Below, piece by piece: positions 703 through 61,214 of a stretch of 64,000 nucleotides of DNA. A program made the position numbers and the translations under genes. The notes under the pieces were generated by a model. That model searched no databases. It had not been told where the DNA came from and saw only the letters and a program-made list of their open reading frames with translations. Numbering within the stretch: the stretch's first letter is position 1; every line of letters starts with the position of its first letter. Origin of the DNA: an uncultured Pseudohongiella sp. (GTDB lineage: Bacteria; Pseudomonadota; Gammaproteobacteria; Pseudomonadales; Pseudohongiellaceae); contig CAXBER010000005.1 in NCBI GenBank assembly GCA_963974875.1, positions 120,928-184,927 on the forward strand, in the 5' to 3' direction.

Positions 703-3700
703 ATGCTTATCAATCGCCATGGCTCACTGCGCCCGCGTTTTACCCGTAATACCAGCGCGCTGTGCGTCGCCGTTTCAATGTCAATGTTTGCTCTTTCATC
801 CACCACCCATGCCCAAAACAACACGCCCGAAGTGGAAGAGGTGCTTGTCACCGGTTCCTTTATCCGTCGCAGCGAAGGCCTGAACGCCGCATCGCCGGTT
901 ACTCAGCTGAGCGCCGAGGATCTGGAAGCGCAGGGCACCGTCAATATGGCCCAGGTCGTGCAGAATTTAACATTCAACAATGGCACTGCCGTTACCAACT
1001 CCATCCAGGGGGTCACCAGTACTACCTCCAGCTTCAATTTGCGCGGTCTTGGCTCAAGAGCCACGCTCACCCTGATTGACGGTAAACGAATTGCAACCGA
1101 TAACGTTCAGTCCATGCTGCCGGCATCGGCGCTGCAGCGCATCGAAGTGGTAACTGATGGCGCGGCTGCGCTTTATGGCACTGACGCGGTGGCCGGTGTG
1201 GTTAACCTGATTCCCTACAGCTCCTATGACGGCTTTAAGGCCGAGTATTTTGAAGAGGGTGACAGCCGGGGTGATTACCGCAAGGTGGAAACCTCTTTTC
1301 TGGGAGGCAAAAGTTTCGGCAGTGTGGATCTGGTGGTTGCCGGTTCCTACGTGGATGCCTCAGCGCTGGAATGGGCGGAACGTCCTGACTACGTCAAGTC
1401 TGGTCTGACCCACAACGGTGGCTCAAATCCCGGCAATTTTCTGGTGCCGAACCGCGATGCCAATGGTGATTTGACCGGCACGTCCGGCAGCCGCGTCGAT
1501 CCCAGCTGTGGATTTAAAACCGAACCTGATCAGGTGAGCAATGGCAATAACGCCTGGGGCAATCCGCTGGGCGGCCGCTGCTTTATGAGTTTTGGCGATA
1601 CCCGGGACTTTCAGCCGGAGTTTGATACGTCATCGCTGTACGGCAATCTGAACTGGGACGTCAATTCAGATATCACTTTCCGATCACAGGTTATCTGGAA
1701 CCGCCAGGTTACCCGTAACCGTAACAACACCGGTAACCCGGGCGCCCGAACCGCAGATCTTCCCATCGTCCGCGGGGAACTGCCGGGCAACAACTTCCGC
1801 GCAAGAACATCTACAGGCGCAGATCTGTTCGCAGAGCCGGCACGGGACGGCACCGGGGCAATCATACTGGACGGGTACGGCCGGCCACTGCCGCTGCGTA
1901 ATGCCTCAGGTCAGGTGCAGTTTGCCAACAACCGGTTTGCCTCCATAGACAGTGATCCATTGGGCGGTGTGCCGTTCAGTGAAGATGTCAGTATCAATGG
2001 TTCACAGTGGCTGCCTTTCGGCAAGCCCGAGGCAAACACCATCCCGACGGAAATGCAGAAATACGGCCATATTCAGATGAACCATGGTGACCGGCGTGCA
2101 CTGCGCTTTTCAACAGGGCTGGATTTTACCGTGCCGATGCTGGAAGGCTGGCGTGGTACCGCCAACTATGTCTACAGCCACTATGACAATGTGGGCAACA
2201 GCACGCAGCAATTCAGCCTGGGCGCTGTTGCGCAAGGTCTGAACTGCGATGTTGTCAATGACGTCAACAGCTGTTTCAACCCGTTTGGCGCAACTGATGC
2301 GCGGTTCAGAACGCCTCAGCACGTAGCCGACGCGATCTTTACCCAGGATCAGGTGGATGACCGGGATTCTCTGCAGACCTTTGACATTATCTTCAGTGGT
2401 GACGTGCGGCTGGGCAATTTTGAATTACCGGGCGGCGTTATCGCCATGGCGGCCGGTTACCAGCGCCGTGAAGAAACTGACAAGAACGGTCCCAGTGCGA
2501 CTTCCATCCGCAACGACCAGTTGATTGGCGTGCAGGCGCTGCCCACCAGTCAGAGTCGTACCAGTGACTCATGGTTTGCCGAGCTGGCATTTCCAATACT
2601 CGACAATCTGGAGCTGTCTGCTGCAGTACGCGACGAAAGTTTCAGTACCGGCCAGGGTGCAGTGGTCGACAAGTTCGGTCTGGTCTATGTACCCACCGAC
2701 TGGCTGAGCATGCGCGCTACCATGGGTGAGGCATTTATCGTGCCTACGTTGTCTCAGCTGAATTCACCTGAAGTCTGCGGGCTGAGCAACGTGGATGATC
2801 TGTTCTCACCCTTTCAGGGCTTCATTACTTCCTGCCGTACCGGGAACCCGAATCTGTTTTCCGAAGGTTCGGAAAGCCTGTCGTTTGGTGTGGATCTGGC
2901 CTTGCTCGACAACCTGACCTGGTCACTTACCTGGAGCGAAACAGACTTTGTTGACCGTATCGTGAGCACCACAACACAGGACATCATCCGTTCAGACTAC
3001 CGCAACTTCAGAGAAGCATCGGGTTTTAATCCGACAGACGCCAATCCCTATCCGACGCTGGCGCAACTGCAGTCCTGGATGAACGATCCGCGTTCAGACA
3101 AGCGTATTATTCGCAACGCGGCTGACATCACTACACCCGACAGAATCCTGCAGAGTGACTCAAATGCGTCGTCCATGCTGGTGCGTGCCTGGGATACCCA
3201 GATTGACTATGACTTCAGTCTGGATGATCTGAGCCTGAATGGCTGGGGTGATATCAGCATGCAGTTGCAGGCAACCTATGTGGATACCTACAGTTTCCAG
3301 ATGGCAGCAGATCTGCCAGTCATGGAAGCGGTCGGCAGGCAGAACAATGACTTTGGCGCGGTGCCGACCATTCCGCAGATCCGTGCCAACCTGCGCATCA
3401 ACTGGTCACTGGGTAACCACACGGTCAGCACGACGACACGGTTTATCGATGAGGTGTCGTTTGATGCCAACGAGTTCAGCTTCCAGCAGTTCTTCCCGGG
3501 CGCTGAATGGGGTGGTCCAACGGAGTCTCTGCGCGCCTGGACCCAGCTGGACATGTTCTACTCCTACCGGGGACTGGAGCTGTTCGGCAGCGATGTCAAT
3601 CTGTCAGTGGGCGCTCGCAACCTGACCGACCGTATGCCGCAGAAAACCGGCATGATTGCCGGTGTGGCGGCTGAATCCCAGGATGTTCTGGGACGGGTGG

Positions 3701-3729
3701 TCTACGGCCGGGTGAACTTCAACTTCTGA
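703..3729 (+). CDS. TonB-dependent outer-membrane receptor
   Basis: 1008 aa with signal peptide, TonB box-like EEVLVTGS, plug motifs (NLRGLG, RIEVVTDGAAALYGTDAVAGVVN) and C-terminal GRVNFNF. Confidence 0.95.
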   Translation: MLINRHGSLRPRFTRNTSALCVAVSMSMFALSSTTHAQNNTPEVEEVLVTGSFIRRSEGLNAASPVTQLSAEDLEAQGTVNMAQVVQNLTFNNGTAVTNSIQGVTSTTSSFNLRGLGSRATLTLIDGKRIATDNVQSMLPASALQRIEVVTDGAAALYGTDAVAGVVNLIPYSSYDGFKAEYFEEGDSRGDYRKVETSFLGGKSFGSVDLVVAGSYVDASALEWAERPDYVKSGLTHNGGSNPGNFLVPNRDANGDLTGTSGSRVDPSCGFKTEPDQVSNGNNAWGNPLGGRCFMSFGDTRDFQPEFDTSSLYGNLNWDVNSDITFRSQVIWNRQVTRNRNNTGNPGARTADLPIVRGELPGNNFRARTSTGADLFAEPARDGTGAIILDGYGRPLPLRNASGQVQFANNRFASIDSDPLGGVPFSEDVSINGSQWLPFGKPEANTIPTEMQKYGHIQMNHGDRRALRFSTGLDFTVPMLEGWRGTANYVYSHYDNVGNSTQQFSLGAVAQGLNCDVVNDVNSCFNPFGATDARFRTPQHVADAIFTQDQVDDRDSLQTFDIIFSGDVRLGNFELPGGVIAMAAGYQRREETDKNGPSATSIRNDQLIGVQALPTSQSRTSDSWFAELAFPILDNLELSAAVRDESFSTGQGAVVDKFGLVYVPTDWLSMRATMGEAFIVPTLSQLNSPEVCGLSNVDDLFSPFQGFITSCRTGNPNLFSEGSESLSFGVDLALLDNLTWSLTWSETDFVDRIVSTTTQDIIRSDYRNFREASGFNPTDANPYPTLAQLQSWMNDPRSDKRIIRNAADITTPDRILQSDSNASSMLVRAWDTQIDYDFSLDDLSLNGWGDISMQLQATYVDTYSFQMAADLPVMEAVGRQNNDFGAVPTIPQIRANLRINWSLGNHTVSTTTRFIDEVSFDANEFSFQQFFPGAEWGGPTESLRAWTQLDMFYSYRGLELFGSDVNLSVGARNLTDRMPQKTGMIAGVAAESQDVLGRVVYGRVNFNF

Positions 3730-3750
3730 TCAACAAACGTTGACTGCAAC

Positions 3751-3797
3751 AACCGGAAACCCTGCCCGACAGCAATGTCGAGCGGGGTTTTCCGGTT
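3751..3797. terminator. Probable bidirectional intrinsic terminator between convergent genes
   Basis: Long inverted repeat AACCGGAAACCC...GGGGTTTTCCGGTT. Confidence 0.75.
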
Positions 3798-5049
3798 ATT
3801 CAAGGCCCTGCGCCAGCGCAGCCGCCCCATCGGTGGCTATCTGCCGGGCCTGCTCAAGCAATCGTGCGGCTGCCTCGGGAGCATGCACGCCACGTGAGGC
3901 ATCGGCATCAACAAAATCCCAGCGAAACTGCGCCTGGCGATGCGCCCGCTGCGCTGCCGCAAGGGCCGGGTGATCAGGGTTGTCAGTCTGCGCCGTGGAC
4001 AACGCATCCATCAGAGTGCTCAGCGCTGATTCGGTCTGGGCAAGTAACGTATCGGTATTCTGCTGGATACGCTGAGTGCGTTGTGTCATTCGTGCAGCGT
4101 CACCGCGATGACAACCCATGCAGGCCTGCTGCACTTGCTGCAGTGGGCTGCGGATCCAGTGATCGGTGATTTCGCTACCCTGGAACTGCACGCGGGGCAT
4201 GTGACAGTCTGCACAGCTGACACCCACGGCGGCATGTGGTCCCTGACTGTGCAATTCATAGTTGGGGTGTTGCACCTTGATCAGTCCGGCACCCGTCCCG
4301 GGGTGGGTCCAGTCACTGAATCCCAGATCCGCATAAAAACGTTCGATGCTGTCCGGTTCCAGACCGTTTGCCCACGGAAAAACCAGTTCATTTCCATCGC
4401 CGCGAAAATAATATTCGACGTGGCACTGTGCGCAAACGTAGTCACGCATTTTTTCGGGTGGCGCAGCATCAGGATCGATGCCCTGCGACTGCAATGCATT
4501 GCGCAGTGCGGGACGGGTGATGGTCAATGCCATGGTGCCAGGCTGATGGCAGTCGGCGCAACTGCTGCCATGATGCACGCGTGCCGCAATATCCTGATAG
4601 GACATGGCATTCAGATTGTCCCAGCCCAGTTCTGCGACCAGCGCAGGGGCTTCGGCAGCATGACAGTGAATACAGCCGGCCGGCTGCTCGCGCTCCAGTG
4701 TACGGCGGCTGTTGCGCTGATCCGCTTGCGCATAGTAGTGCGCTCGTGCAGCGTTATACTCCAGTTCAAAGGCCATGCCTGCCCAGGCGCGGGCGCGGAA
4801 CGGATTTTCGGCCAGGCGATCATGCTGCGGGCTGGTATCGGCGCCGTTACCCTGCAAAAAACCGCCCTGAAAATAAGAGGCAACATGCAGCGGATACAGT
4901 GTTTGCCATAACGCCGGATCGGTCGCACTGCTCAACTGCTCGCCGCGCTGCAGTTGCTGCCAGCCGAACCCCAGCGCGAGTAGCATCACCACTGGCAGGC
5001 TGGCCAGTGCCAGCAGTTTTGCCCATCGTTCACGCATAGCTGACCTCAC
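3796..5049 (-). CDS. nrfA: NrfA-like pentaheme cytochrome c552 (ammonia-forming nitrite reductase family), heme-1 CXXCH variant
   Basis: Five heme motifs CIHCH, CADCH, CAQCH, CADCH, CMGCH; CAQCHVEYYF; KVQH between hemes 3 and 4; WAGMAFELEYNAARAHYY; QFRWDFV; N-terminal membrane anchor. Alternative start is ATG 5037. Confidence 0.85.
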   Translation of the reverse strand: MRSAMRERWAKLLALASLPVVMLLALGFGWQQLQRGEQLSSATDPALWQTLYPLHVASYFQGGFLQGNGADTSPQHDRLAENPFRARAWAGMAFELEYNAARAHYYAQADQRNSRRTLEREQPAGCIHCHAAEAPALVAELGWDNLNAMSYQDIAARVHHGSSCADCHQPGTMALTITRPALRNALQSQGIDPDAAPPEKMRDYVCAQCHVEYYFRGDGNELVFPWANGLEPDSIERFYADLGFSDWTHPGTGAGLIKVQHPNYELHSQGPHAAVGVSCADCHMPRVQFQGSEITDHWIRSPLQQVQQACMGCHRGDAARMTQRTQRIQQNTDTLLAQTESALSTLMDALSTAQTDNPDHPALAAAQRAHRQAQFRWDFVDADASRGVHAPEAAARLLEQARQIATDGAAALAQGLE

Positions 5050-6365
5050 GCCATATCAAAGAGTTCCGAGTGAATGCGACGCAGTGGCACGCCAAGCACG
5101 CGCAGATATTTTTCCATATTGACAATCATCGGGCGCGGACCACAAATAAAATACTCATAGTCTGCGCGATTGTCCGGGAGGTGTCGCTGCAGGATGTCCC
5201 GGGTAATCCAGCCAGTTTCACCGTGCCACTGCGCAGGTGGTGACTCAAGCACCGGCACGCTGGTCAGGTTCAGGTTTGCCGCCAGGGCGGTGATGTCCTC
5301 TCGCCGGGGTATGCGCTCAAATTCACTGTGCGCGGCAAACAGGACGTGCAGGCGTTTGTCGTTTGCGGCCAGCAGACCTTCCAGCATACTGATGACCGGC
5401 GCGACACCAATGCCGCCGGCGATAAACACAAATCCGGGTGCCTGAGGATAGTGCGAACAGGAAAATATACCATACGGCCCGTCCACACAGGCCGGCGTGC
5501 CAACCGGGTAGTTTGCCAGCGTGGCGGTGAAATCGCCCAGCGCCTTGATGGTAAAACACACACTGCCGTCCGCAGTCGGTGCACATGAAAAAGAGAAGGG
5601 ATGTTCCTGCATGGTAAAGGGTGAATGCCCCAGGCTGAGCCAGGCGAACTGCCCCGGCGTGAACTGCATACCATTGTGCCCCACTGGTCTGAGCACCAGC
5701 GTACGACTTTCACCACGTTCAGCGCGGTTTTCCACCAGTTGCCAGGGCCGGGCGGCCAGTCGCCAGGGTCTGATCAGACGGACAGTGACTATCAGCGCTA
5801 CCAGAATCAGCAACATCAGCACCAGTGCAAATGCCAGGACCGGTGTCGCGCTGTAGTAACCAATGGCAAACAGATGGGCCACCACCAGACCAACCACCGT
5901 CAGTGCCAGAAGCAGATGCAGAATGCGCCAGTGGTTATAGTGTAGCTGCAGTGTGCGGCGCCAGACCGAGGTCACTACCAGCAGTGCCAGCACCAGTAGC
6001 GCCAGCCAGCCACTGGTGAGCGCCCAGTCAGCCGGCAACAGACGTTGCCAGCGGGCGGGATCGTCAGCCAGCAGAAACAGCGGGTGCAGCAATACCAGCA
6101 TCACAAGAGCGCTGGCGGCATACCGATGAAAGTAATAGATGATGTCGATGCCAAAGGGCGCAGTGGGCTGGCGCAACCGCGCTGTCAGCGGAAACTGGCC
6201 CAGCAGCAGGCCCAGCGCACCAAAACCCAGCGCAATACCACTTTCCCACCAGAAACCGCCCTTGGCCGGCACCGGCGTGGTGAGCATCAGCAGCAGCGGT
6301 GCCAGCGCCAGCAGCGCATACAGCGTGAACCAGCTCAATGCCTGAATGCGCAGTGGTACGGTCAT
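5046..6365 (-). CDS. Ferric-reductase/NOX-like transmembrane flavocytochrome (heme b domain + FAD + NAD(P)H-binding domains)
   Basis: Six hydrophobic segments with two H-X13-H pairs, followed by HPFS, DGPYG, AGGIGVAP and ICGP motifs. Confidence 0.9.
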   Translation of the reverse strand: MTVPLRIQALSWFTLYALLALAPLLLMLTTPVPAKGGFWWESGIALGFGALGLLLGQFPLTARLRQPTAPFGIDIIYYFHRYAASALVMLVLLHPLFLLADDPARWQRLLPADWALTSGWLALLVLALLVVTSVWRRTLQLHYNHWRILHLLLALTVVGLVVAHLFAIGYYSATPVLAFALVLMLLILVALIVTVRLIRPWRLAARPWQLVENRAERGESRTLVLRPVGHNGMQFTPGQFAWLSLGHSPFTMQEHPFSFSCAPTADGSVCFTIKALGDFTATLANYPVGTPACVDGPYGIFSCSHYPQAPGFVFIAGGIGVAPVISMLEGLLAANDKRLHVLFAAHSEFERIPRREDITALAANLNLTSVPVLESPPAQWHGETGWITRDILQRHLPDNRADYEYFICGPRPMIVNMEKYLRVLGVPLRRIHSELFDMA

Positions 6366-6455
6366 CTGTGTCCCCCGCGGGTCAGTGTTGTACCCGTCAA
6401 TTGATTACATGAGCTTATCGACAATATGAACTTTATGTGTCAAATAAGCGAATTT

Positions 6456-6512
6456 TTGTCAAGCAAGATTCATAAATATCAAGAAAATCTGTCACACAAG
6501 TCTCTCTATAAT
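6456..6512 (+). promoter_or_regulatory. Putative PhoB-type promoter for the TBDR-phosphatase genes
   Basis: Heptamers in an 11-bp register (TTGTCAA 6456, GATTCAT 6467, CTGTCAC 6489; the 6478 position is poor), with a perfect TATAAT at 6507-6512, 11 bp after the last heptamer. Confidence 0.55.
6469..6482 (-). promoter_or_regulatory. FNR/DNR-like box upstream of the reductase-nrfA operon
   Basis: Minus strand reads TTGAT-ATTT-ATGAA, a 9/10 match to TTGAT-N4-ATCAA. Confidence 0.45.
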
Positions 6513-6629
6513 GCGCTCGCACTAAACTGTTAGAGCCGGCGCCCTTTTTGGGTGCGCGGGCATTTCTCCTAACCAAAAAACACTGACCATAAAGTGTCAG
6601 GTTTACGTCATATTACCTGGAGTTACAAG

Positions 6630-9600
6630 ATGAAGTTCAGAAAAAACCTGTTGAGTCAGGCAATTATAGTTGCGCTGTTTACGGTGCCGGCTATGGAGCT
6701 GGTGGCACAGACGCCCGGATCAGCTAATTTTGCTATCGCACAGGCAGGTGCAACCGGTATGGTCGCGGTGACCGGAGAAATCAGCGGTGTGGTAACAGAT
6801 GCCGTGCGAGGCGTTTATCTGGTTGGCGCAGAGGTGCGCATCAGTGGCATTGAAGTTGTAGCCGTAACGGACAGCGAAGGACGTTTCACACTGCGTTCGG
6901 TGCCAGTCGGCAACTACACGCTGGACGTCAGTTATCTGGGCCGCCCGTCGCGCCAGGCCACAGTAACAGTGACCGGCAATCAGGTGGCGACAGTAGACGT
7001 GGTGCTTGGTGCAACAGGTGAAAATGACCAGGTAATAGAGAGTATGGTAGTGATCGGCGCGCGCCCGCAGGCTGAATCCGAAGCCAGGGCACTGCAGATG
7101 CAGCGCTCTTCCGCTGCCATCATCAGTGTGGTGTCGGCAGACGCCGTGGGTCAGTTCCCGGACCAGAACATTGCTGCGGCGCTCTCACGTCTGCCGGGTA
7201 TCGCGGTTCAGCGCGACCAGGGGCAGGAGCGTTCAGTCAGTCTGCGCGGCGCGCCATCGCGCTGGAGCACGATTTCATTTGACGGCGTCAACGTGATTGC
7301 GCCCAGTGGTAAATCCGCGCGTACCGACACAGTGCCTGCGGCCATTGGCAGCGCTGTTGCTGTGCGCAAGGCAGTGACGCCAGCCATGCAAGGTGAGTCG
7401 CTGGCAGGCAATGTTGATATCATCACCCGGGGCGCGTTTGATTATCGGGGCTTCAAGTCTGCCTTGAACGTTGGTGCCGGTTACAACGAACTCGGCGGCA
7501 CGGATCAGAATGAGATTGGCGGCTTTGTTGCCAATACATTCGCCGATGGGCGTTTTGGTGTGCTGGTGTCGGCATCGCGATACGAGCGCGACATGATCAC
7601 CGACAACTTTGAGACTGACTGGGAAACCGGAGAGGATTCCCAGGACCGTGAACCCGGTTTCGAAGATCGCGCCTGGGCGGATGCACACCAGAACAAACTT
7701 TACCGCCTGACTCGCAGCAATACTGCGTACTCCGGCCGGTTTGACTTCCGTCCATCTGACGAACATCATTTTTTCTTCAGCTCCATCTACACCGAATTCA
7801 CCGATGATGAGTTGCGCAATGCTCACGAATTCGATTTTGATGACGGCGCAACGCGTACCGACCGTGCTGATGTGACACGCGGCTATGCCGATGTCCGTAC
7901 CGGCAACACCCCGTTGCAGGGTACAATCTACGGTGTGGAACTGGACAGCTCCCTGAATTCCAACAGGACACTGGAAAGCATTTTCACCAATACGCTTGGC
8001 GGTGAACAGCGATTCGGTGACTGGGATGCCTCCTGGCGGCTCAACTACAGTAATTCCCGTTCCGAGAGCGGACCGTCTATCCAGTCGGCCTGGAGAAGCC
8101 CTCGCGGAGCAGATGCGTTCAGCCATCGTCCGACTGTGGTCTATGATTACACCGACCGGGCAAGACACGGCGTCAGGCTTTACGAAACCATCGTAAATGC
8201 CGATGGGTCGCTCTCGCAAGGTGCCGTGAAGCGCTCTCTTGATCCACAGGATTACGAGTTTGTCCGACTGCGGAACAATGAACGGTTACAGGACAGTGAG
8301 TCCTCCAGCGTGCGTCTGGACCTGAGTCGTGATCTGACACTGTTCGGCCGACCGACTGATTTCCAGTTTGGTTTCCAGTACGACGACAGATCAAAGAAGG
8401 ACACCCGCCAGAGGCAGGAAATTTCTTCGGGCGCACTTGCCGATGCCGGCGTCGCTTTCCCGACTACCGATGATTTTGCCATCAATGATCCGTACCAGGG
8501 CGCACTACCGCTGGGTTATACCTTCCGCTACTTCTCGGACAGTGGTCTGCGGAGCCTGTGGAGCAGTCTTGCCGGACAGGGTCTGGCCGAAATCGACGCT
8601 AACGACTCACGGACCAATAATTACGAGGTCACCGAAACCGTGCTGGCCGGCTATGCGATGGCAACCACCTATTATGACTGGGGTAACATCCTGACGGGTG
8701 CACGTGTTGAACGCGTAGAAAACACCGGCAGCGCTCTGGTCCGGTTCGGAAATAATTTCGAGCCTGCCAAGGTTGGCGGCGACAGCGTTGAGATATTCCC
8801 CAGTGTGCACGTGAACTGGGACATCAACGACGAGCTCAAACTGCGCCTTTCAGCCAACAGCGGTGCGGCGCGGCCTGATTTCACCGTCCTGCGGCCGAAC
8901 TACACCGTCTCTGACGAGAACGAAACAATCAGCGGCGGCAATCCGCTGGCTGGTCCGGAGAAGGCTGTCGGCGGTGATGCCTACCTCGAATGGTACATGC
9001 CATCTGGCGCCTTCTTCTCTGTTGGTGCGTATTACAAGGCGCTGGATGATGTGCTCTTCACTGTCACCCGGCCGCGCTTCGGCAGCGATGTCTTGAACCA
9101 GACCGGGGTTGACCGGTCCGGGTACGAGTACACGACTATCGATAATGGTGGCAGTGGTCATATCGCCGGGTTTGAACTTGCAGTGTCACAGACGCTCGAG
9201 CCGTTCGCAGACCGTATGAACCTGCCAGACTGGGTGAGCGGTTTCGGCTTCCGCGGCAACCTGACGCTCAACGATTCGGAGAGCGAAACGCCTGACGGTC
9301 GCAAGATCCAGTTGCCCGGTTCGTCCGACACCATCTACAACCTGGCGCTGTCCTATGAGCGCTATGATCTGTCGACTCGGCTCAGCTGGCAGTACCGCAC
9401 CAAGTGGATCGACAGCATCGGCAATGGCGACATTCTGGGTGACGGCTACTGGGATGAAGTCGGTCGTCTGGATTTCAAGGTAGGGTATTCGTTTAATGAG
9501 AACGTTAATGTCTATCTGGAAGCGAACAACCTGCTGGAAGAGCCGGGTATCCGTTATGAAGGTGAGACGTACCGGGTCTCTGAGTACGAGGAGTTCGGGC

Positions 9601-9635
9601 GCCGCTACATGATCGGCCTGCGCATGAACTTCTGA
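6630..9635 (+). CDS. TonB-dependent receptor with N-terminal carboxypeptidase-regulatory-like domain
   Basis: ORF 6594..9635 with likely ATG at 6630 (MKFRKNLLSQA); VGQFPDQNIAAALSRLPGI plug motif; C-terminal GLRMNF. Confidence 0.95.
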   Translation: MKFRKNLLSQAIIVALFTVPAMELVAQTPGSANFAIAQAGATGMVAVTGEISGVVTDAVRGVYLVGAEVRISGIEVVAVTDSEGRFTLRSVPVGNYTLDVSYLGRPSRQATVTVTGNQVATVDVVLGATGENDQVIESMVVIGARPQAESEARALQMQRSSAAIISVVSADAVGQFPDQNIAAALSRLPGIAVQRDQGQERSVSLRGAPSRWSTISFDGVNVIAPSGKSARTDTVPAAIGSAVAVRKAVTPAMQGESLAGNVDIITRGAFDYRGFKSALNVGAGYNELGGTDQNEIGGFVANTFADGRFGVLVSASRYERDMITDNFETDWETGEDSQDREPGFEDRAWADAHQNKLYRLTRSNTAYSGRFDFRPSDEHHFFFSSIYTEFTDDELRNAHEFDFDDGATRTDRADVTRGYADVRTGNTPLQGTIYGVELDSSLNSNRTLESIFTNTLGGEQRFGDWDASWRLNYSNSRSESGPSIQSAWRSPRGADAFSHRPTVVYDYTDRARHGVRLYETIVNADGSLSQGAVKRSLDPQDYEFVRLRNNERLQDSESSSVRLDLSRDLTLFGRPTDFQFGFQYDDRSKKDTRQRQEISSGALADAGVAFPTTDDFAINDPYQGALPLGYTFRYFSDSGLRSLWSSLAGQGLAEIDANDSRTNNYEVTETVLAGYAMATTYYDWGNILTGARVERVENTGSALVRFGNNFEPAKVGGDSVEIFPSVHVNWDINDELKLRLSANSGAARPDFTVLRPNYTVSDENETISGGNPLAGPEKAVGGDAYLEWYMPSGAFFSVGAYYKALDDVLFTVTRPRFGSDVLNQTGVDRSGYEYTTIDNGGSGHIAGFELAVSQTLEPFADRMNLPDWVSGFGFRGNLTLNDSESETPDGRKIQLPGSSDTIYNLALSYERYDLSTRLSWQYRTKWIDSIGNGDILGDGYWDEVGRLDFKVGYSFNENVNVYLEANNLLEEPGIRYEGETYRVSEYEEFGRRYMIGLRMNF

Positions 9636-9730: not shown

Positions 9731-11164
9731 ATGACAAATGCAATTTTTATCATCAAATCCCGGCGTCACCTGCTTCATGCAATTGTGCTCGCTGCGCTGA
9801 TGGCCGGTGGTCTGACAGTAACGCCGGCCATGGCACAGAACACACTGGTACCCGAGGGTGAAACATCACCCTATATCGCCACAGCTTTCCCGGATCGCAT
9901 CGTGCTGACCGCAACTGCCGACCCCGCACATGCCCAGACAGTCAACTGGCGTACCCGCAGCTCCGTTAATACGGCCTATGCCCAGATTACCAAAGCTACC
10001 GGGTCACCCGCACTGCACCTGACCGCACAAAATATTCAGGGCGAGACGCAGGCGCTGGATGCGCACAACGGCATGGCTCATCACCATCATGTAACCTTTA
10101 CCGGTCTCGAGCCGGACACGCTGTATGCCTACCGTGTCCGGGGCGACAACACCTGGAGCGAGTGGTTTCAGTTCCGCACCGCAACAAATGATTTCTCGCC
10201 ACATTCGGCAATCTATTTCGGTGACGCGCAGAACGCCGTCAAGTCCCACTTTTCACGGGTCATGCGTGAAGCCTACAGCACTGCGCCACGTGCACAGGTC
10301 ATGGTGCATGCCGGTGACCTGGTCAATTCTGGTGGCAACGACAACCATGACGATGAGTGGGGTGAGTGGTTTGATGCCGGCAGTTTTATCAACAGCATGC
10401 TGGTGAATGTCGCTGTTGCCGGTAACCATGAGCATATCCGCACAGAAACCGGTCCGCGGGTACTGATGCCACAGTGGCCGGTGCATTTCCGGTTTCCCGG
10501 CAATGGTCCTGCGCCGCTGAACAACACGGTCTATTACATGGACTACCAGGGTGTGCGTTACATAGGCCTGGATTCCCAACAGGCGTTGCAGGATGAAGCG
10601 CTGCTGAAACTGCAGGCCGACTGGCTGCGTGGCGTGCTCAGCGACAATCCCAATCGCTGGACCGTTGTGAGCTATCACCACCCGATGTTCTCTGTATCAC
10701 TGGGTCGCGACAATCCGCCGTTGCGTCAGCAGTGGCAGCCGGTGTTCGACGAATTCAATGTGGATCTGGTCCTGCAGGGCCATGACCACACCTATGGTCG
10801 TGGTGAAAACGTGGCAAGCGGCGCGTCGGGTCAGATGAACGGTGCCGGTCCCATGTACGTAGTGTCGGTTTCCGGCCCCAAGATGTATATGCTGGGCGAC
10901 CAGTCTGCGGCAACCATGGATCGGGTTGGCGAGGACGTGCAGTTGTTTCAGGTCATGGAGTTCCGCGAAGACCGTATTGTGTATCAGGCCCGAACGGCAA
11001 CCGGTGAGTTGTACGATGCCTTTGATATTGAGCGGGCGAGCGATGGCAGCAAACGTGTCATCGATCGTCGCCCGGATACGCCGGTCAGCCTGTGCAGCAA
11101 TCCCGAGGCGCGCACCGGTTCAAGCTGCTGGAGTGGCAGCAGTTTTTTGCAGCCGGATCTGTAA
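9731..11164 (+). CDS. Purple-acid-phosphatase-like metallophosphoesterase with FN3-like N-terminal domain
   Basis: Signal peptide; FGDAQ, HAGDLVN, AGNHEH, YHHP and QGHDHTY motifs. Confidence 0.9.
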   Translation: MTNAIFIIKSRRHLLHAIVLAALMAGGLTVTPAMAQNTLVPEGETSPYIATAFPDRIVLTATADPAHAQTVNWRTRSSVNTAYAQITKATGSPALHLTAQNIQGETQALDAHNGMAHHHHVTFTGLEPDTLYAYRVRGDNTWSEWFQFRTATNDFSPHSAIYFGDAQNAVKSHFSRVMREAYSTAPRAQVMVHAGDLVNSGGNDNHDDEWGEWFDAGSFINSMLVNVAVAGNHEHIRTETGPRVLMPQWPVHFRFPGNGPAPLNNTVYYMDYQGVRYIGLDSQQALQDEALLKLQADWLRGVLSDNPNRWTVVSYHHPMFSVSLGRDNPPLRQQWQPVFDEFNVDLVLQGHDHTYGRGENVASGASGQMNGAGPMYVVSVSGPKMYMLGDQSAATMDRVGEDVQLFQVMEFREDRIVYQARTATGELYDAFDIERASDGSKRVIDRRPDTPVSLCSNPEARTGSSCWSGSSFLQPDL

Positions 11165-11181
11165 CAGCTGATATGTGTCAG

Positions 11182-11212
11182 AAAACCGGAGCCCTGTGCT
11201 CCGGTTTTTTTT
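11182..11212 (+). terminator. Intrinsic terminator
   Basis: AAAACCGGAGC-CCTGT-GCTCCGGTTTTTTTT. Confidence 0.85.
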
Positions 11213-11300
11213 GCTTGCCTTGTCCGACTGGGTTAATCTTGAACGCGCCGTTACCAAAAACACGCGCAATTCAATGCCTCAAAGTCAGGGGAATGCAAGA

Positions 11301-12740
11301 ATGAACAAAACAATGATATCCGTCGCCCTAATGAGTCTGGTGTTATCTGCTGACGGAATCGCCCAGCAGACCGAACAGTATGATTACTGGGCACCGCAGC
11401 GGGCCATGGTGCAGCGCGGGCAGCAGGCGGTATTCATGTGCAATGGCCTGTTCACCAGCAACCGTACGCTGGAGCAGGTGTTCAGCCAGGAACTGGCTTT
11501 TCTGCGCAATCCCGTTGGTACGGCTGACGGCGGTGACTACCAGATTGACTCCGAGCGTCGCGCGGTGGAAGTCGGCGCGCCGGGTGATGTGCCGGTGATG
11601 CGCGCGGTGTTCCGGGAAGGCATAGGCTGCATCATTCTGCCGCCGGATCAGACGCTGGCAGACATCGACAGTCTGCCCGAACTGACCCTGCCGCTACCTG
11701 CCGGTGATGCGGCACAGATACCCTGGCCCGACGTCGACCTGATCGAACCGCAGGCATTACCCGCCAATATCGATGCCAATGCCCTGCAGGCGGCTTCTGA
11801 CTGGGCCTTTAATCGTCCGACCCCGGAGCAGGACACGCTCAGCCTGGTGGTGGTTTACAAAGGGCAGATCATCCTGGAACGTTACGCGCCCGGTATTGAT
11901 GTGGCCACGCGCACGCGTACCTGGTCCACGGCCAAGAGTATTGCTTCCACCTTGATCGGCATGCTGGTTGACGATGGTCAGCTGGCCCTGGATAAACCGC
12001 TGAATCTGGGCTGGCAGCCACAAGTGGACGCCGTCGAATCCGACCCGCGACGTCACATCACGCTCAGACATGTGCTGAATATGAGCAGCGGGCTGGAAAG
12101 TCCTGACAACGGAGGCATGGAATATGCAACCGGGTCAGGACTTTCCTATTGGGCGGGCGCCAGCTCCGTCAAGGGCGCCCTGAGTCGCGCCATGATCCGG
12201 GAGCCCGGCACACACTGGGACTACGAGAACTACGACACCATACTGGGTGTGTATGCCATGAAGCTGGCGCTGGGTGGCGAAAACGCGTACGCCGAGTTCC
12301 CCCGCAAAGCCCTGCTGGATAAAATTGGCATGCGCAACACCCTGGTCAGCACCGATCGGTTTGGTGACTTTGTGCTCAGCAGCCAGGTCTACACCAATGC
12401 CAGAGACCTGGCACGGTTTGGTCTTCTGTACCTGAACGATGGCATGTGGAATGGTGAGCGGCTCATTTCAGAGGACTGGATTGAATTCTCCCGCACCCCT
12501 GCGCCCGCCACGGTGGGTCGGGGTGGTCAGTACGGCGGGCAATGGTGGCTGGTGCCGGAAGGGCGCACTGACATCCCGGCGGATGCCTACTCCACCAATG
12601 GTAACCGTGGCCAGTACACCGTGGTTGTGCCATCGCATGACCTGGTGATTGTGCGCCGGGGTCTGGATTATGGCAGGCAGGGGTTCAGTCAGTGGGATCT
12701 TGCGCGGGAAGTGCTGAAGGCGGTGGGGCCGGCGCAGTGA
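11301..12740 (+). CDS. Secreted serine hydrolase, beta-lactamase/AmpC family
   Basis: SxxK (STAKS), WDYENYDT, GNRGQY; likely ATG at 11301 with signal peptide. Confidence 0.85.
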   Translation: MNKTMISVALMSLVLSADGIAQQTEQYDYWAPQRAMVQRGQQAVFMCNGLFTSNRTLEQVFSQELAFLRNPVGTADGGDYQIDSERRAVEVGAPGDVPVMRAVFREGIGCIILPPDQTLADIDSLPELTLPLPAGDAAQIPWPDVDLIEPQALPANIDANALQAASDWAFNRPTPEQDTLSLVVVYKGQIILERYAPGIDVATRTRTWSTAKSIASTLIGMLVDDGQLALDKPLNLGWQPQVDAVESDPRRHITLRHVLNMSSGLESPDNGGMEYATGSGLSYWAGASSVKGALSRAMIREPGTHWDYENYDTILGVYAMKLALGGENAYAEFPRKALLDKIGMRNTLVSTDRFGDFVLSSQVYTNARDLARFGLLYLNDGMWNGERLISEDWIEFSRTPAPATVGRGGQYGGQWWLVPEGRTDIPADAYSTNGNRGQYTVVVPSHDLVIVRRGLDYGRQGFSQWDLAREVLKAVGPAQ

Positions 12741-12878: not shown

Positions 12879-14018
12879 ATGACTTGGGATCCAGCCAAGC
12901 CATATAACAACCTCCCTTTGTTACCACCGGCTCAAGAGTTGGAGACAAAGGCCGTCCTGAAACGCTGTATTGTCGCCAGGGCAGCACTTGCCGAACTCAA
13001 GCAGGCAGCTGAGCTTATTCCTAACCAGGCGATGCTGATCAACACTCTGCCACTCCTGGAGGCAAAAGACAGTTCAGAAATCGAGAATATCGTCACCACG
13101 ACTGACATTCTTTTGCAGTTTGCCTACGGCAATCAGGCACGTGCAGACTCAGCCACCAAGGAGGCTTTGCGATACCGCAGGGCGCTTTACGAGGGTTGGA
13201 AAACATTAGCCCATCGTCCGATCAATACCAACATGGCCGAATCAATCTGCAGCCAGATAAAAGGTGTTGATATGGCGGTGCGGAAAGTGCCGGGCACTAC
13301 GTTGGCCAACGACAGAACAGGTGAAGTAATCTACACGCCACCCCAGGGTGAAAAAGCGCTTCGTGATCTTCTGAGCAACTGGGAAAAGTTGCTTCAAGAA
13401 CACCCAGATCTTGACCCTTTGGTTCGTATGGCGGTGATGCATTACCAGTTCGAAGCAATCCATCCGTTTACAGATGGCAATGGACGTACTGGTCGCATTC
13501 TGAATATCCTGTACCTGGTGCAGGAGGGATTGCTCAATCTGCCAATCCTGTATCTGAGTCGTTTTATCATCGCCAATAAGGGGCGATATTATGATAGTTT
13601 GCTGGCAGTCACCCGGGAAAATGCGTGGGAATCCTGGATTCTATACATGCTGGATGCAGTTGAGAGCACTGCATTGTGGACGACACACAAAATCGTCAGT
13701 ATCCGTAACCTTGCCGATGATACGGCGGATCATGTGCGGGCGCAGTTACCGAAAGTCTATAGCCGTGAACTGATTGATGTTCTGTTTCAACAACCTTACT
13801 GCCGAATCAATAATCTCGTAGACGCTGGCATTGCCATGCGGCAAACAGCCTCGGAATACCTCAAAAAGCTGTCCGCTATAGGCGTGCTGACTGAGAATCA
13901 GGTAGGCAGAGAAAGAATATTTGTACAATCCAAACTGGTTCACCTGCTTACGACAGATGACAATGAATTTGAACCGTATCCCCGGCACGGGACACGTTTT
14001 CCGTCATCGTCCAAATGA
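12879..14018 (+). CDS. fic: Fic family adenylyltransferase with intramolecular inhibitory motif and C-terminal winged HTH
   Basis: HPFTDGNGRTGR catalytic motif; SSEIEN inhibitory motif; C-terminal wHTH-like segment. Confidence 0.92.
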   Translation: MTWDPAKPYNNLPLLPPAQELETKAVLKRCIVARAALAELKQAAELIPNQAMLINTLPLLEAKDSSEIENIVTTTDILLQFAYGNQARADSATKEALRYRRALYEGWKTLAHRPINTNMAESICSQIKGVDMAVRKVPGTTLANDRTGEVIYTPPQGEKALRDLLSNWEKLLQEHPDLDPLVRMAVMHYQFEAIHPFTDGNGRTGRILNILYLVQEGLLNLPILYLSRFIIANKGRYYDSLLAVTRENAWESWILYMLDAVESTALWTTHKIVSIRNLADDTADHVRAQLPKVYSRELIDVLFQQPYCRINNLVDAGIAMRQTASEYLKKLSAIGVLTENQVGRERIFVQSKLVHLLTTDDNEFEPYPRHGTRFPSSSK

Positions 14019-47952: not shown

Positions 47953-48460
47953 CCCACTTTCACTAAATGATTGCCGCCAAAGGTAAGGATCGCTTTCGAA
48001 GTTAAGCTTTAGTGTTTCCACAGTGAGAGGGAGCGCATAAAAGGTGGTCACCAACGAACGACCGTCCCATTTTCCACGGGTCAGTCGGGCTCGGTGATGC
48101 AGATAGCCCTAGCGATCAAGTATAAGGAAAGTACTCTGGCTCTGTTTTATGCCGGATGTGTAAATCTGGGTGCGGCGGCACCGGTGCATGCTTGGCGGGA
48201 TGACTGCAAGTGAAAGCAGCGGTCAGCGTAATTTAGTAATTGAGTGGGTGAGCATTGAAGTGACGCCATTTGTAGCGAAAATATATTCCTCACGGCGGTG
48301 ACTGTGGGTGGAGGCTGCTTTGCATAGAGTATGGGAAATAGCTCACGGAAGCGACTACGTTCTACTTGAAGTGTGCGGGAAGCTTGGGCTGGTCCAGACA
48401 TTTTACTAAAGTGTCCGAAATTTCCAGGGCAGAGTCCATAACAATAAAACAGGATAAAAC

Positions 48461-50747
48461 ATGTCAATTTTTAAAGCAGAAGCTAAATCGTTGCTAAAAT
48501 TGTTTACAGGTGAGGCAAACCGTATCGGCTTTAAAATCCCGGAATATCAAAGGAAATATGACTGGGGTGAAAACAATATCATTAGATTATTCGAAGATAC
48601 TCTGTCTGGATTGAAATCATTGGAGCGGGATCCAGATTCCATCACATTCTTAGGTTCAATAATTCTTATCCAAAATCAAGATCTAAGAGAGCCGAGCTTT
48701 GACGGAGAATCTTTAGAAATAGTGGATGGTCAGCAGCGAATAACTTCATGCGCTATAGTAGCGGTGCATCTTCACGAAGCGATAGACACGGAACTGTCTA
48801 GTCTTCCCGAGATAGGCACTGATCTTAGAGAGTGGTTAACAAGAGAAGCGAAAAGAACGAAGCAATTGCTGCTGCAGTGCGTATTTGGGAATTTATTGGT
48901 GGATGGTATAGATAATTTCCCATTTCCTAGAATTGTAAGAACGAATGATAATAGAGCTGCGTCAGATGGTGAGTTGGAATATCGGTCATTAACTGCTAAG
49001 TATTTTTTTGGGTATGCTCAACATATTAGAAAAAGGACTAGTCGCCTATACGAGAAACCCGAAGCAGACAAAAATGATCAATCGACAGTCAGATTCTTGG
49101 AGAATGTCAAATTTATAGAAAAATGCATAAGGGTTCTCAGTAAGAGCTCCGAAGAAGTTGACTTTGGAGTAGAGCTTCTAGAAACGAATACTTTCAAGGT
49201 GACAAATATAAGAAAGCTCTTTCAGGCTCCATCGGAACGACAAGACATCACTAATAGACACTTCGAAATGATATGTGGCAAGTACCGATGTGAAACAGAA
49301 GCTCTGGTGAGGCTTGTCATTTTTGCAAACTATTTCCTGGAAAATGTAATTCTAACCGTTGTAACTACTCGGGCAGAGAAATACGCTTTTGATATCTTTG
49401 ACTCCCTTAATACGACAGGCGAGCCATTGACTGCGATCGAAACATTTAAGCCTAAGGTAATTCGATTCGAAAACGGCCAGCAAGGAAAGTACAAGGGATC
49501 CGAAAGTGAGTCCCATTTTGCCGTGGTAGAGAAATATATCGATCAATTTAGTAAAAATAGTGACAAACAAGAAGAGTCGCGTGACCTAATTCTTCCCTTT
49601 GCGCTGCTAACGACTGGTGACAGATGTTCTCGCCATTTGGTAAACCAGCGACGATATCTGAGAGCAGAGTATGATTCAATACCTGTTGAAAATAAGGTTA
49701 ATAAACGGAAATTCATTAAAAATCTCGCAGACATTGCGAGGTTTAAAAGCGAGTTTTGGAATCGAGATAACTTGCTTCAAAGGCTGCCAGTACTCTCGGA
49801 CAGAGAGTCTGTAATATTGTGCCTTGCATTCCTAATAGACCTTAAAAACACTCTTGCAATACCCATACTCACGCGAGTATGGGTTCATTCAGAAGAGATG
49901 GGCGATTTTAAGTTTTTTGCGGACTGTGTCAAAGCACTAACAGCTTTTGTAGTACTTAGAAGAAGCGCTACGGGAGGGACTGCAGGGATCGATAATGATC
50001 TAAGAGGTGTGATGGAAAAAGGGGGGGGTAGATGGAAGCGACCGAGGAATGAAAACTGGGACGAGGTTTGACCGTCCGATGACTTCCGTGACTGACTTCA
50101 AGGAGATGCTGAAAGTTCGTCTAGCAAGACGACCTGCGGAAATTAACGGCAAAGAATCTTGGCTTGACCAGGCCAAAAAGCAACCTTTGTATTTAAGCTC
50201 GCGACCTCTTTGTCGGTTCATTATTCTCGCCGCAAGTCACAATTCTCGCCCATCCCAGGCAGAACCCATACTTTTATTGAAAGATAGACCCAGCCCTGAA
50301 CTGGAGTATCTTTCTTATAGAAAGTGGTTTGAAGACGATTTACTAACAATTGAGCATATAGCACCCGAAAGCGACCGGGAGCGGAAGTGGCCGCTGCCAA
50401 TTTATGATCTACCCTATCTAAGGCACACAATCGGAAATTTGACGTTACTTTCACAGGAGCAGAACTCTGCAATAGCCAATTATGAATGGGGACGGAAGAA
50501 GCTTTTCTATAAAGCATTTTCTGTAGATACGATACGGGAAGTTGAAGCAGCTATCCATGAAGCTTCTGGTCACGGGGTTTCCTTTAGTAACAGGACCAAA
50601 GTGATGCTGAGGGGAATGCGGCAATTGCCAGTGGCAAAAGGGATATCCTTGGCCAGTACGTGGTCTGTCGCGGAGATTGAAGCTAGAACTGAAAATTTGC
50701 TTAGCATCTGTTGGGATGAGATTTCCCCTTGGCTTTTTGATAGCTAA
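48461..50747 (+). pseudogene. sspE: SspE-like DUF262-DUF1524 effector split by a +1 frameshift in a G8 tract (ORFs 48461..50071 and 50049..50747)
   Basis: IPEYQRKYDW, DGQQR and FDSLNTTG in ORF1; EHIAP and GNLTLL in ORF2. Removing one G from 50021-50028 gives a single 761-aa frame. Confidence 0.8.
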
Positions 50748-51067
50748 AGTTTTCTCTGTTTAATAATGCCAGCAACACGATTTGTATCGTAGGTCTTTGG
50801 CCGTAGTTGGAATGGCTCAAAATTAACTCAGGGTCATCGATCAGGATAAGTTATTCGAGAACGGATAATGTGTCCTGAAAGAGCGATTCCGCGGGCCTGA
50901 CGTCTTGAGGGTTGGTTGTATTGAGTATATTGAAAGTATTGTGGTGTGCCTAATTTAAATTGATGGTGAGGTTGCGAGTTGAAGTTACGGCTTTTCGAGC
51001 TGCTTTCGTTTTAATAGGCGGTACACTGGCAGGTTGGCAACAAAGGTATACCTTATAGGCCGGCGTG

Positions 51068-51096
51068 ATGTAACATTATCTCATGTTATGTTACAT
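51068..51096 (+). promoter_or_regulatory. Inverted-repeat operator in front of the ssp operon
   Basis: ATGTAACAT-N11-ATGTTACAT. Confidence 0.7.
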
Positions 51097-51109
51097 AGAG
51101 GGTAAAGTG

Positions 51110-51310
51110 ATGGCAGTGGGCTCAAGCGGTCGAATTGTGATAGAGATTGATCCGGCTACGAAAAAAGAGCTATATCATATGCTTAGAGAGGAAAACTCCA
51201 ATTTAAAAGAGTGGTTTCTACGGCATGTAGAGGATTACCTGGCAGGTAAAGAGCAGTTTCAGTTAGATCTTGGGGCTCCGGTTCGTAACAAAGGCAGACA
51301 TTTTATATGA
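51110..51310 (+). CDS. Small ribbon-helix-helix-like regulator leading the ssp operon
   Basis: RIVIEID...KKELY..L...NLKEWF pattern; ATGA overlap with sspB. Confidence 0.6.
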   Translation: MAVGSSGRIVIEIDPATKKELYHMLREENSNLKEWFLRHVEDYLAGKEQFQLDLGAPVRNKGRHFI

Positions 51311-52227
51311 GATTCAACCCCGAAAAAATGGCCTTCGGGCGGCACGAGACTTTCGCTCTACGCTATGGCTGGCTCTCCAAGGGTTTTCAGGCGCTAGAAG
51401 AAGACGACGGCATCTTCGAGTCAGACGACGCAACTGTAAAGTTGGGCGTGGGTAAAAACATGGTAAATGCCATCAAGTATTGGTTGCGCGCTTGTCAGAT
51501 GATGCACCCTACTCAGAATGCCCCTACTCAGCTTGGAAAAGAGTTGTTGTCTGGTACTGGGTTCGATCCCTACCTAGAAGATGAAGCTACGATATGGTTA
51601 TTGCATTGGCTTTTGGCTACGAATGCTGAACTAGCGACCTCATGGTATTGGTTCTTTAATCGCTTTCATAAGCCAGAGTTTACTGGTCAAGAGTTGAACA
51701 CGGCCCTCAATGACTTCGTTTCGGACAAAGTCATTAATAGAAAAAAACCTGCCCCTGCGACTTTAGCGAACGACGCGAATTTGCTTCCACGCATGTACAC
51801 CCAATCAAAGGGAAATACTCGAACGCCTCTGGAGGACGCACTAGACTCACCATTTTCTTTGTTAAAGCTAGTGACTCAGAGTGCGAGTGGCAGGAGTTTT
51901 CAATCGCGGCCTATGGCGAGACCCGATTTGCCGCTCGGGGTCTTGGGCTTTGCTGTATGCCAAACGTTTGAGATTAAAAACACCAAGGCAATTCCTATAG
52001 AAGATTTTATGTACAGCAAAGATAATTATCCTGCGATAGGTTCGGTATTCCGACTGACAGAAAGCGACTTAGTAACAAAACTCGAAAAACTAATTAACTA
52101 TATCCCAGGTAAATTCGATATCAGAGATACTGCAGGACAGCATCAGCTTTACTCCTCAGAGGTGACTGATGGAATGATCTACATTGCTGAACACTACAAC
52201 CACCCCGCCCAAGGTGTCGCAGCATGA
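51307..52227 (+). CDS. sspB: SspB (DUF4007) phosphorothioation protein
   Basis: FGRHETFALRYGWLSKG, LGVGKNMVNAIKYW, FDPYLED..TIWLLHWLL. Confidence 0.88.
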   Translation: MRFNPEKMAFGRHETFALRYGWLSKGFQALEEDDGIFESDDATVKLGVGKNMVNAIKYWLRACQMMHPTQNAPTQLGKELLSGTGFDPYLEDEATIWLLHWLLATNAELATSWYWFFNRFHKPEFTGQELNTALNDFVSDKVINRKKPAPATLANDANLLPRMYTQSKGNTRTPLEDALDSPFSLLKLVTQSASGRSFQSRPMARPDLPLGVLGFAVCQTFEIKNTKAIPIEDFMYSKDNYPAIGSVFRLTESDLVTKLEKLINYIPGKFDIRDTAGQHQLYSSEVTDGMIYIAEHYNHPAQGVAA

Positions 52228-58957: not shown

Positions 58958-58960
58958 AAG

Positions 58961-61208: not shown

Positions 61209-61214
61209 GGAAAA

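Follow-up and report, generated by a model that had tools for sequence, protein, structure and literature searches.

How does a periplasmic nitrite reductase obtain its electrons in a genome that encodes none of its recognized redox partners? This question is raised by two consecutive genes on the minus strand of a 64,000-nucleotide stretch of DNA from an uncultured Pseudohongiella sp. (GenBank assembly GCA_963974875.1, contig CAXBER010000005.1, positions 120,928 to 184,927), which is hereafter called the window. The upstream gene (5046..6365) is an open reading frame (ORF) of 439 amino acids (aa) for a NOX-type flavocytochrome b of FRD-FAD-NAD organization, referred to here as FRD. The downstream gene (3796..5037; 413 aa from its likely ATG) encodes a pentaheme cytochrome of the NrfA type. 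We favor, with moderate confidence, the interpretation that the flavocytochrome is the dedicated electron donor of this periplasmic, membrane-anchored NrfA and that the transfer is driven by NAD(P)H and bypasses the quinones. A route from NAD(P)H to the pentaheme protein around the quinone pool had been proposed in an initial annotation of the sequence. It now has genomic support from the conservation of the pair, the replacement of NrfH in its gene slot and the lack of the known partners.

Structure of the NOX-type flavocytochrome b

The FRD protein is matched by three Pfam families, namely PF01794 (Ferric_reduct, residues 46-160), PF08022 (FAD_binding_8) and PF00175 (NAD_binding_1). Two pairs of histidines with H-X13-H spacing, His80/His94 and His150/His164, are invariant across 18 aligned homologues. 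The motifs HPFS (255-258), GGIGxAP (317-323; GGIGVAP in this protein) and CGP (408-410) are likewise invariant. The histidines are the predicted heme b ligands, with His80/His150 holding the inner and His94/His164 the outer heme. The other motifs mark a predicted cytoplasmic FNR-like domain in which HPFS would serve FAD and GGIGVAP and CGP would serve NAD(P)H. An AlphaFold2 model of the protein (pLDDT 82, pTM 0.78) consists of six transmembrane (TM) helices followed by the FNR-like domain. In this model the histidine pairs are located on TM3 (helix 73-101, His80 and His94) and on TM5 (143-168, His150 and His164).

When the model was compared with the PDB using Foldseek, the three best fold matches were all SpNOX structures (TMq 0.71-0.72, TMt 0.78-0.79, E 2.5e-19). 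The best full-length match was SpNOX 8qt6, with TM scores of 0.72/0.79 over 442 columns and a sequence identity of 19%. By sequence, the dehydrogenase domain is nearest to MMO-C, BenC and flavohemoglobin reductases, and in the Pfam search the NOX-type NAD_binding_6 (PF08030) was not scored, PF00175 being reported instead. The initial annotation had read a NOX/ferric-reductase architecture, with two H-X13-H pairs and FAD and NAD(P)H motifs, from this gene; the Pfam matches, the alignment of 18 homologues and the fold match confirm that description.

The downstream gene encodes an NrfA of the all-CXXCH type

The downstream protein matches PF02335 (Cytochrom_C552) with 363 bits, the alignment covering positions 2-383 of the 438 in the profile. 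It contains five CXXCH motifs in the order and with the spacing seen in NrfA: CIHCH at 126, CADCH at 164, CAQCH at 206, CADCH at 279 and CMGCH at 310, all numbered from the GTG start considered below. A single hydrophobic helix is present at the N-terminus (residues 12-30). The motif positions and this helix bear out the earlier description of a membrane-anchored protein with five hemes. Solved NrfA structures were matched at E values of 1e-44 to 1e-55, among them 2e-55 for Shewanella NrfA (3ubr) and 2e-54 for the D. vulgaris enzyme. The first heme motif, CIHCH, aligns with CWSCK of Shewanella NrfA, and the protein thus has no Lys-ligated CXXCK site. On the basis of its motifs, it is assigned to the published all-CXXCH clade of NrfA, which includes functional enzymes (PMC12285233, PMC10716430).

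The catalytic Arg (ARAH, Arg102), Tyr (HVEYYF) and His, as well as the KxQH motif of the Ca site (IKVQHP, between hemes 3 and 4), align with those of 3ubr and 2j7a. The Arg/Tyr/His triad, the Ca motif and the five heme sites are kept in all eight full-length FRD-linked NrfA proteins examined. The protein scores below the equivalog cut-offs of the NCBIfam models NF008339 (264 versus 595 bits) and TIGR03152 (220 versus 692 bits), both of which were built on CXXCK enzymes. The initial annotation had allowed for nitrite, nitric oxide (NO), hydroxylamine or a metal as the substrate. Within this range the retained catalytic residues favor the reduction of N-oxides over that of metals.

Two of the FRD-linked nrfA genes are interrupted. 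In the closest relative (L081/L001; 79% identity, same genus), which comes from a metagenome-assembled genome (MAG, CAJXPR010000046.1), the reading frame of NrfA is broken close to residue 338 by a frameshift, at about 7312-7317, and the NrfA of L096 is also split into two ORFs, at about 2341-2363. These splits could be MAG assembly errors or pseudogenes.

Conservation and descent of the FRD-NrfA pair

A scan with the NrfA protein, covering one genome per prokaryotic species, returned 80 loci, and an FRD gene was found upstream of nrfA only in the two closest of these. Further loci came to light when the FRD protein and an FRD alignment were used as queries. All ten other species genomes with this FRD clade (52-81% identity) carry nrfA directly downstream, and the pair is therefore present in a small marine-type group of 11 species-level gammaproteobacterial genomes, that of the window included. 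The other pair-bearing loci (L081, L002, L082-L084 and L092-L096) have taxonomic labels such as Pseudohongiellaceae, Chromatiales, Pseudomonadales and Gammaproteobacteria, and the genes around the pair differ from locus to locus among these relatives. The initial annotation had proposed a synteny search for pairs of ferric-reductase-TM and cytochrome c552 genes; this search showed the pair to be kept in the 11 genomes, with a single clade for each partner.

In a maximum-likelihood tree of NrfA, the eight full-length FRD-linked proteins form one clade with 100/100 support and a long stem of 0.74. This clade is nested in nrfHA lineages, its sister being the nrfHA of Thermus scotoductus (99/92). 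The 11 NrfA-linked FRDs also form one clade, with a support of 100 in the Shimodaira-Hasegawa-like approximate likelihood ratio test (SH-aLRT), and this clade is sister to FRDs that are linked to a monoheme cytochrome c. A four-heme ORF of ~150-200 aa adjoins 68 of the 74 other NrfA rows on the tree, mostly on the upstream side, and PF03264 (the NapC/NirT/NrfH family) was matched by all four of the adjacent four-heme genes that were tested. Among the other NrfA lineages, those nearest to this clade have a PF03264 gene in the upstream slot that is held here by the NOX-like gene.

The simplest history that these trees allow is a single exchange in front of a CXXCH-type nrfA, in which NrfH would have been lost and the NOX-like gene gained, the pair being co-inherited from then on. 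When the same simplest history is viewed from the FRD side, NrfA would have replaced the monoheme partner of FRD. The long stem of the NrfA clade suggests adaptation following this swap of partners.

A separate gene arrangement was seen in Pseudohongiellaceae-type relatives. At L169 (10608-12482, minus strand) and L084 (7685-9574, minus strand), a pyrroloquinoline quinone (PQQ)-dependent dehydrogenase with a C-terminal cytochrome c domain is encoded convergently to NrfA. This gene is not found at the locus in the window.

Canonical NrfA donors are absent from the genome

The genome to which the window belongs (3.68 Mb in 25 contigs, 99.3% complete) carries just one NrfA. It encodes no PF03264 protein and no match to NrfD (PF03916), the latter family not having been searched in the ten relatives. 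It also has no other ORF with at least four CXXCH motifs, and hence no NrfB-like pentaheme protein; the next heme-richest protein of this genome is a three-heme MauG/MbnH-like peroxidase. PF03264 is absent from all ten other pair-bearing genomes as well. The initial annotation had noted the absence of nrfH and nrfBCD for the window, and this absence extends to the whole genome. It had also considered that such genes might serve the cytochrome from elsewhere; none is present in the genome of the window, and the ten relatives encode no PF03264 protein. Several mono- and diheme cytochromes c are encoded in the genome of the window.

Cytochromes c are the usual neighbors of the NOX-like family

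The wider NOX-like family comprised 2406 proteins at E <= 1e-10 and was present in at least 580 species genomes. We sorted 76 untruncated family loci by the gene directly downstream of FRD, with L081, L082 and L096 being reassigned by tblastn. A c-type cytochrome gene occupies this position in 50 of the 76 loci. It encodes a monoheme class-I cytochrome c of ~130-170 aa (PF00034) in 35 loci, NrfA in 10 and a larger multiheme protein in 5. When three of the five larger proteins were scanned, all were found to start with a class-I cytochrome c domain, followed by c7/c3-type or further class-I domains. The class-I domain looks like a conserved docking module. The fusion partners of FRD found at L108 (6315-7949), L111 (6318-7217) and L101 (3145-4287) have 12, 5 and 3 hemes, respectively, and their extra heme domains after PF00034 are of the c7/c3 type in L108 and L111 and of class I in L101.

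An MtrA-like decaheme cytochrome is present at several family loci, and in L090 an MtrB/PioB porin gene lies directly upstream of FRD. The latter locus (JGI metagenome contig Ga0556613_000040, 1870-6731) encodes an MtrA-like decaheme, the MtrB/PioB porin, a NOX-like FRD and a monoheme cytochrome c in one same-strand cluster, an arrangement which suggests an NAD(P)H-fed conduit to the outer membrane. Decahemes are encoded near FRD in L116, L128 and L132 as well.

As judged from these gene neighborhoods, a periplasmic c-type cytochrome is the usual neighbor of FRD and, as a habit of the family, its candidate acceptor. The gene context of the family argues for a protein acceptor rather than O2. 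Cytochrome c as the usual FRD neighbor fits with the properties of SpNOX, which reduces cytochrome c directly and anaerobically; its authors stated that the physiological acceptor was unknown and suspected a protein (PMC11564096, PMC5676040).

Comparison with known systems

The NrfHA systems of Wolinella and Desulfovibrio (PDB 2j7a) share with the present pair the pentaheme catalytic subunit, the Arg/Tyr/His triad and the KxQH Ca motif. They too are encoded by two-gene operons with the donor gene first, and nrfHA operons are the nearest relatives on the NrfA side. The difference is in the donor, which in NrfHA is a NapC/NirT tetraheme quinol dehydrogenase but here is a NOX-type flavocytochrome b that has a site for NAD(P)H. 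The electron source differs with it, being quinol in NrfHA and, by prediction, cytoplasmic NAD(P)H in the present case. In a 2025 review, NrfH, CymA and NrfBCD are the only partners listed for NrfA, and all CXXCH NrfAs are said to use NrfH (PMC12285233).

SpNOX and other prokaryotic NOX proteins (PDB 8qt6, 8qq7; Hajjar 2017, Dubach 2024) have in common with FRD the six TM helices, the two hemes b and the FAD/NAD(P)H domain. SpNOX and FRD are only 19% identical, and the NAD domain of FRD scores as PF00175 (FNR/BenC/MMO-C type) rather than as the NOX-type PF08030. In addition, a specific periplasmic heme enzyme is genetically linked here as a candidate acceptor. In the MsrQ-MsrP system (with Fre), a diheme membrane protein of the FRD superfamily also sends electrons outward to a dedicated periplasmic reductase, although MsrQ itself is without a fused dehydrogenase domain, unlike FRD. 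It has been proposed that long 'MsrQ-like' forms with PF01794 and PF00175 (Meheust et al. 2021) draw on NAD(P)H and pass electrons to flavinylated proteins (PMC8238504). The partner in the MsrQ systems is the molybdoenzyme MsrP or an ApbE-flavinylated FMN protein, mostly in Actinobacteria, whereas a c-type multiheme nitrite reductase from Gammaproteobacteria is the partner here.

Diheme FRD-like membrane proteins encoded together with multiheme cytochromes c are also known from the porin-cytochrome clusters PCC3 and PCC4 of Fe(II) oxidizers (PMC5566968) and from ptdABCDEFG (bioRxiv 10.1101/2023.11.21.568154). The ptd cluster includes a separate FAD/NAD(P) oxidoreductase and a pentaheme protein of COG3303, the NrfA family. 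These are large multi-gene clusters of unknown function with porins, decahemes and a split FRD and flavoprotein; the present locus, in contrast, has one fused NOX-like protein and an NrfA-type catalytic subunit and nothing else. A literature search found no paper describing a NOX-like gene paired with nrfA. Gene context supports the view that what is new here is an NrfA system with a quinone-independent type of donor.

Proposed electron path and role

We propose that NAD(P)H docks on the FNR-like domain in the cytoplasm and passes its electrons to FAD, from which they would traverse the membrane singly by way of the inner heme b (His80/His150) and the outer heme b (His94/His164). The electrons would then enter the heme chain of NrfA and reach its His-ligated active-site heme, where nitrite would be reduced to ammonium (6 e-, 8 H+) or, alternatively, NO or hydroxylamine would be reduced. 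Both the quinone pool and NrfH/NrfBCD would be bypassed along this path. We infer the direct transfer from FRD to NrfA, and the same holds for the substrate, for whether NADH or NADPH is used and for the role in the cell. The flow is drawn outward because NAD(P)H is found only in the cytoplasm and because six TM helices put the dehydrogenase domain on the same side as the N-terminus. Thermodynamics led us to discard the reverse flow, from cytochrome c to NAD+, which would be uphill by >0.5 V and would run against the membrane potential.

Since electrons would be exported and protons consumed outside, the route would dissipate the proton-motive force. For this reason, a function in detoxification or as an electron sink is favored over one in respiration. 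The roles that we favor are the detoxification of nitrite, NO or hydroxylamine and an overflow valve or electron sink for NAD(P)H. The scavenging of exogenous nitrite is a possible role, and energy-conserving respiration appears unlikely.

If NrfA is indeed fed by NAD(P)H, the module would follow a bioenergetic design of another kind, being a counterpart to the cytoplasmic NirBD that is placed in the periplasm and dissipates the proton-motive force. Some nrfA genes in marine and sediment metagenomes would then have to be read as a sign of detoxification or of an electron sink and not of respiratory DNRA (the dissimilatory reduction of nitrate to ammonium). The pair also provides the bacterial NOX enzymes with a candidate for a natural acceptor in a two-protein reaction that is easily assayed. 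In a broader proposal, for which the arguments seem to us evenly balanced, FRD would be the fourth kind of redox partner for NrfA and the first that is independent of quinones. The NOX-like clade, with its at least 580 species genomes, would in this proposal be made up not of oxidases but of transmembrane NAD(P)H:cytochrome c reductases, their acceptor having been swapped among monoheme cytochromes c, multiheme wires, MtrAB and NrfA.

Alternative explanations

Several observations weigh against FRD as the dedicated donor of NrfA. No cytochrome gene lies directly downstream of FRD in 26 of the 76 family loci. There are only eight clade-specific positions in the NrfA-linked FRDs, and one of them falls within the 26 residues of the periplasmic loops, so they are not concentrated there, and their small number does not allow a docking surface to be pinpointed. 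The pair is an accessory trait that is present in 2 of the 22 species of the genus. The gene is contained in no RNA run and only in DNA metagenomes; near-identical DNA occurs in those from marine, seawater, landfill and sediment samples. The genome of the window has no match to the Pfam Molybdopterin family (PF00384) and is hence without a nitrate reductase. The two relatives in which the nas region was examined, the same-genus genome G041 and also G046, have complete nrtABC-nirBD-nasA clusters beside the pair, so the module is not essential for the use of nitrite. Finally, NrfA might receive its electrons from the bc1 complex or from a soluble cytochrome c.

This last point leads to an explanation in which the two genes are linked without direct exchange of electrons. 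The NOX-like protein would reduce a soluble cytochrome c, O2 or some other acceptor, and NrfA would be fed from a periplasmic cytochrome c pool (bc1, cytochrome c4/c5 type). The mono- and diheme cytochromes c required for it exist in the genome, the class-I monoheme cytochrome c with which the wider FRD family mostly pairs is missing in the NrfA clade, and the clade-specific residues of FRD are not enriched in the periplasmic loops. Yet NrfA takes the exact place of the monoheme gene, 8 to ~85 nucleotides (nt) past FRD, in 11 of 11 genomes, NrfH has vanished both from that slot and from the 11 genomes altogether, and the long stem of the NrfA clade suggests that NrfA adapted after the swap. 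We therefore consider an indirect connection unlikely. The locus might instead be a reductive system for iron or other metals, in which Fe(III)-chelates or other metals are reduced and taken up through the TonB-dependent receptors encoded on both sides (703..3729 and 6594..9635). Ferric reductases do belong to the FRD superfamily, and multiheme cytochromes are often metal-reducing. Such a function is nevertheless quite improbable, since the receptor flanks are not conserved, with orthologues on other contigs in the genus and unrelated neighbors in the relatives, and since every clade member examined retains the nitrite-reductase triad and the Ca site. SpNOX's activity as a ferric reductase, moreover, is very low (PMC11564096).

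The fold and the motifs of FRD are NOX-like, and the protein might accordingly be a genuine oxidase that releases superoxide or H2O2 outside the membrane, with NrfA acting as a periplasmic peroxidase or as a scavenger of NO or peroxynitrite that protects from the products or uses them. NrfA is implicated in the tolerance of Wolinella to peroxide, NO and hydroxylamine. The family-wide pairing with c-type cytochromes and MtrAB points to protein acceptors instead, and a newcomer that replaces the donor NrfH is best explained as being a donor too; we rate an oxidase as even slightly less probable than a metal reductase. The last explanation, to which we give hardly any credence, is that the two genes were brought together in a variable region by a lineage-specific accident and that they are functionally uncoupled. 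It would be in keeping with an accessory pair that 2 of the genus's 22 species carry and that sits in a region without conserved synteny. However, the two genes stay side by side at 52-59% protein identity across loci labeled Pseudohongiellaceae, Chromatiales and Pseudomonadales, where all the neighbors differ, and each partner forms a single clade.

The other nitrogen and electron-transfer genes of the genome are in keeping with the roles proposed above for the FRD-NrfA module. The lack of a PF00384 match means that NuoG, formate dehydrogenase and nitrate reductase are all absent from the genome of the window. This genome content implies that NADH is oxidized without complex I, probably by an enzyme of the Nqr type. 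Nitrite for the module would have to come from outside or arise as an intermediate of a NirK-like pathway. The genome encodes no NirS and has one NirA/CysI-like sirohaem protein. We considered FRD-NrfA as a replacement for NirBD and dismissed this idea because G041 and G046 hold both and because the genome of the window is without nitrate reductase. The coexistence of the pair with nrt-nirBD-nasA, together with the absence of nitrate reductase, indicates that the module is independent of nitrate assimilation.

Elsewhere in the genome of the window (G000:C9:152841-155940), a gene for a NirK-like two-domain cupredoxin, which scores 167 bits against the TIGR02376 cut-off of 296, is followed by genes for a diheme cytochrome c and for a second two-domain multicopper oxidase. 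This group may be a divergent Cu nitrite reductase cluster.

Gene boundaries and flanking elements

Both ORFs are where the initial annotation had placed them, consecutive on the minus strand at 5046..6365 and 3796..5049. The latter coordinates apply if NrfA starts at a GTG at 5049, which gives 417 aa. The overlap of 4 bp (GTGA) that had been claimed for the two genes holds only with this start. At the junction (5037..5049, minus strand), the FRD stop codon TGA (5048-5046) overlaps a GAGG Shine-Dalgarno sequence (5047-5044), which is separated by a 6-nt spacer from an ATG at 5037, 12 nt downstream of the GTG. This ATG matches the MRER... start of all FRD-linked NrfA homologues. Because of these MRER starts and the GAGG, we favor ATG 5037 and a gap of 8 nt. 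The tight linkage thus stands and the overlap itself is probably incorrect, the gap of 8 nt being compatible with translational coupling as well. In the relatives, the gap between FRD and NrfA is roughly 10-85 nt.

A hairpin is predicted at 3748..3800 (minus strand), directly past the NrfA stop codon and between convergent genes. The RNA fold has an energy of -35.1 kcal/mol (z = -6.3), and none of 200 shuffles was as good. The hairpin has no T-run, and the terminator scan does not call it as a canonical terminator. It is likely to mark the end of a two-gene transcript. With a stable hairpin after the NrfA stop, the FRD and NrfA genes seem to make up a two-gene operon.

Upstream of the FRD gene there is a divergent intergenic region of 228 bp (6366..6593), which presumably contains the promoter of the pair. 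No sigma-70 consensus was found in a promoter scan of this region. One FNR/CRP-like half-palindrome, TTGATatttATGAA, is present ~117 nt upstream of the FRD ATG. Anaerobic regulation through TTGATatttATGAA was considered and dropped, as the box is not conserved upstream of the ten related operons.

The pair is flanked by genes for two TonB-dependent receptors of ~1010 aa each, at 703..3729 and 6594..9635, both on the plus strand. Paralogous TonB-dependent receptors are numerous in the genus. The pair could not be described as a clean insertion between the receptor genes, because in the other species of the genus the receptor orthologues are on separate contigs and no empty site can be defined. 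Beyond the receptors, a purple-acid-phosphatase-like metallophosphoesterase and a serine hydrolase of the beta-lactamase family are encoded at 9731-12740 (plus strand).

Other features of the window

The segment from 48000 to 62000 is low in G+C content (0.42-0.46, versus ~0.55 elsewhere in the window) and contains defense-island-like genes. These encode a split GmrSD (N and C domains), a PLD-helicase (ResIII/SNF2) and an SMC-like AAA ATPase. In the same segment are a DUF4007 protein, a protein of 1159 aa without a family match and a PAPS-reductase-like protein, a set which we take to be Ssp/Dnd-like. At 12879-14018 (plus strand), the window encodes a Fic/DOC family protein with Fic_N, Fic and SoFic-like C domains and a HPFTDGNGRTGR motif.

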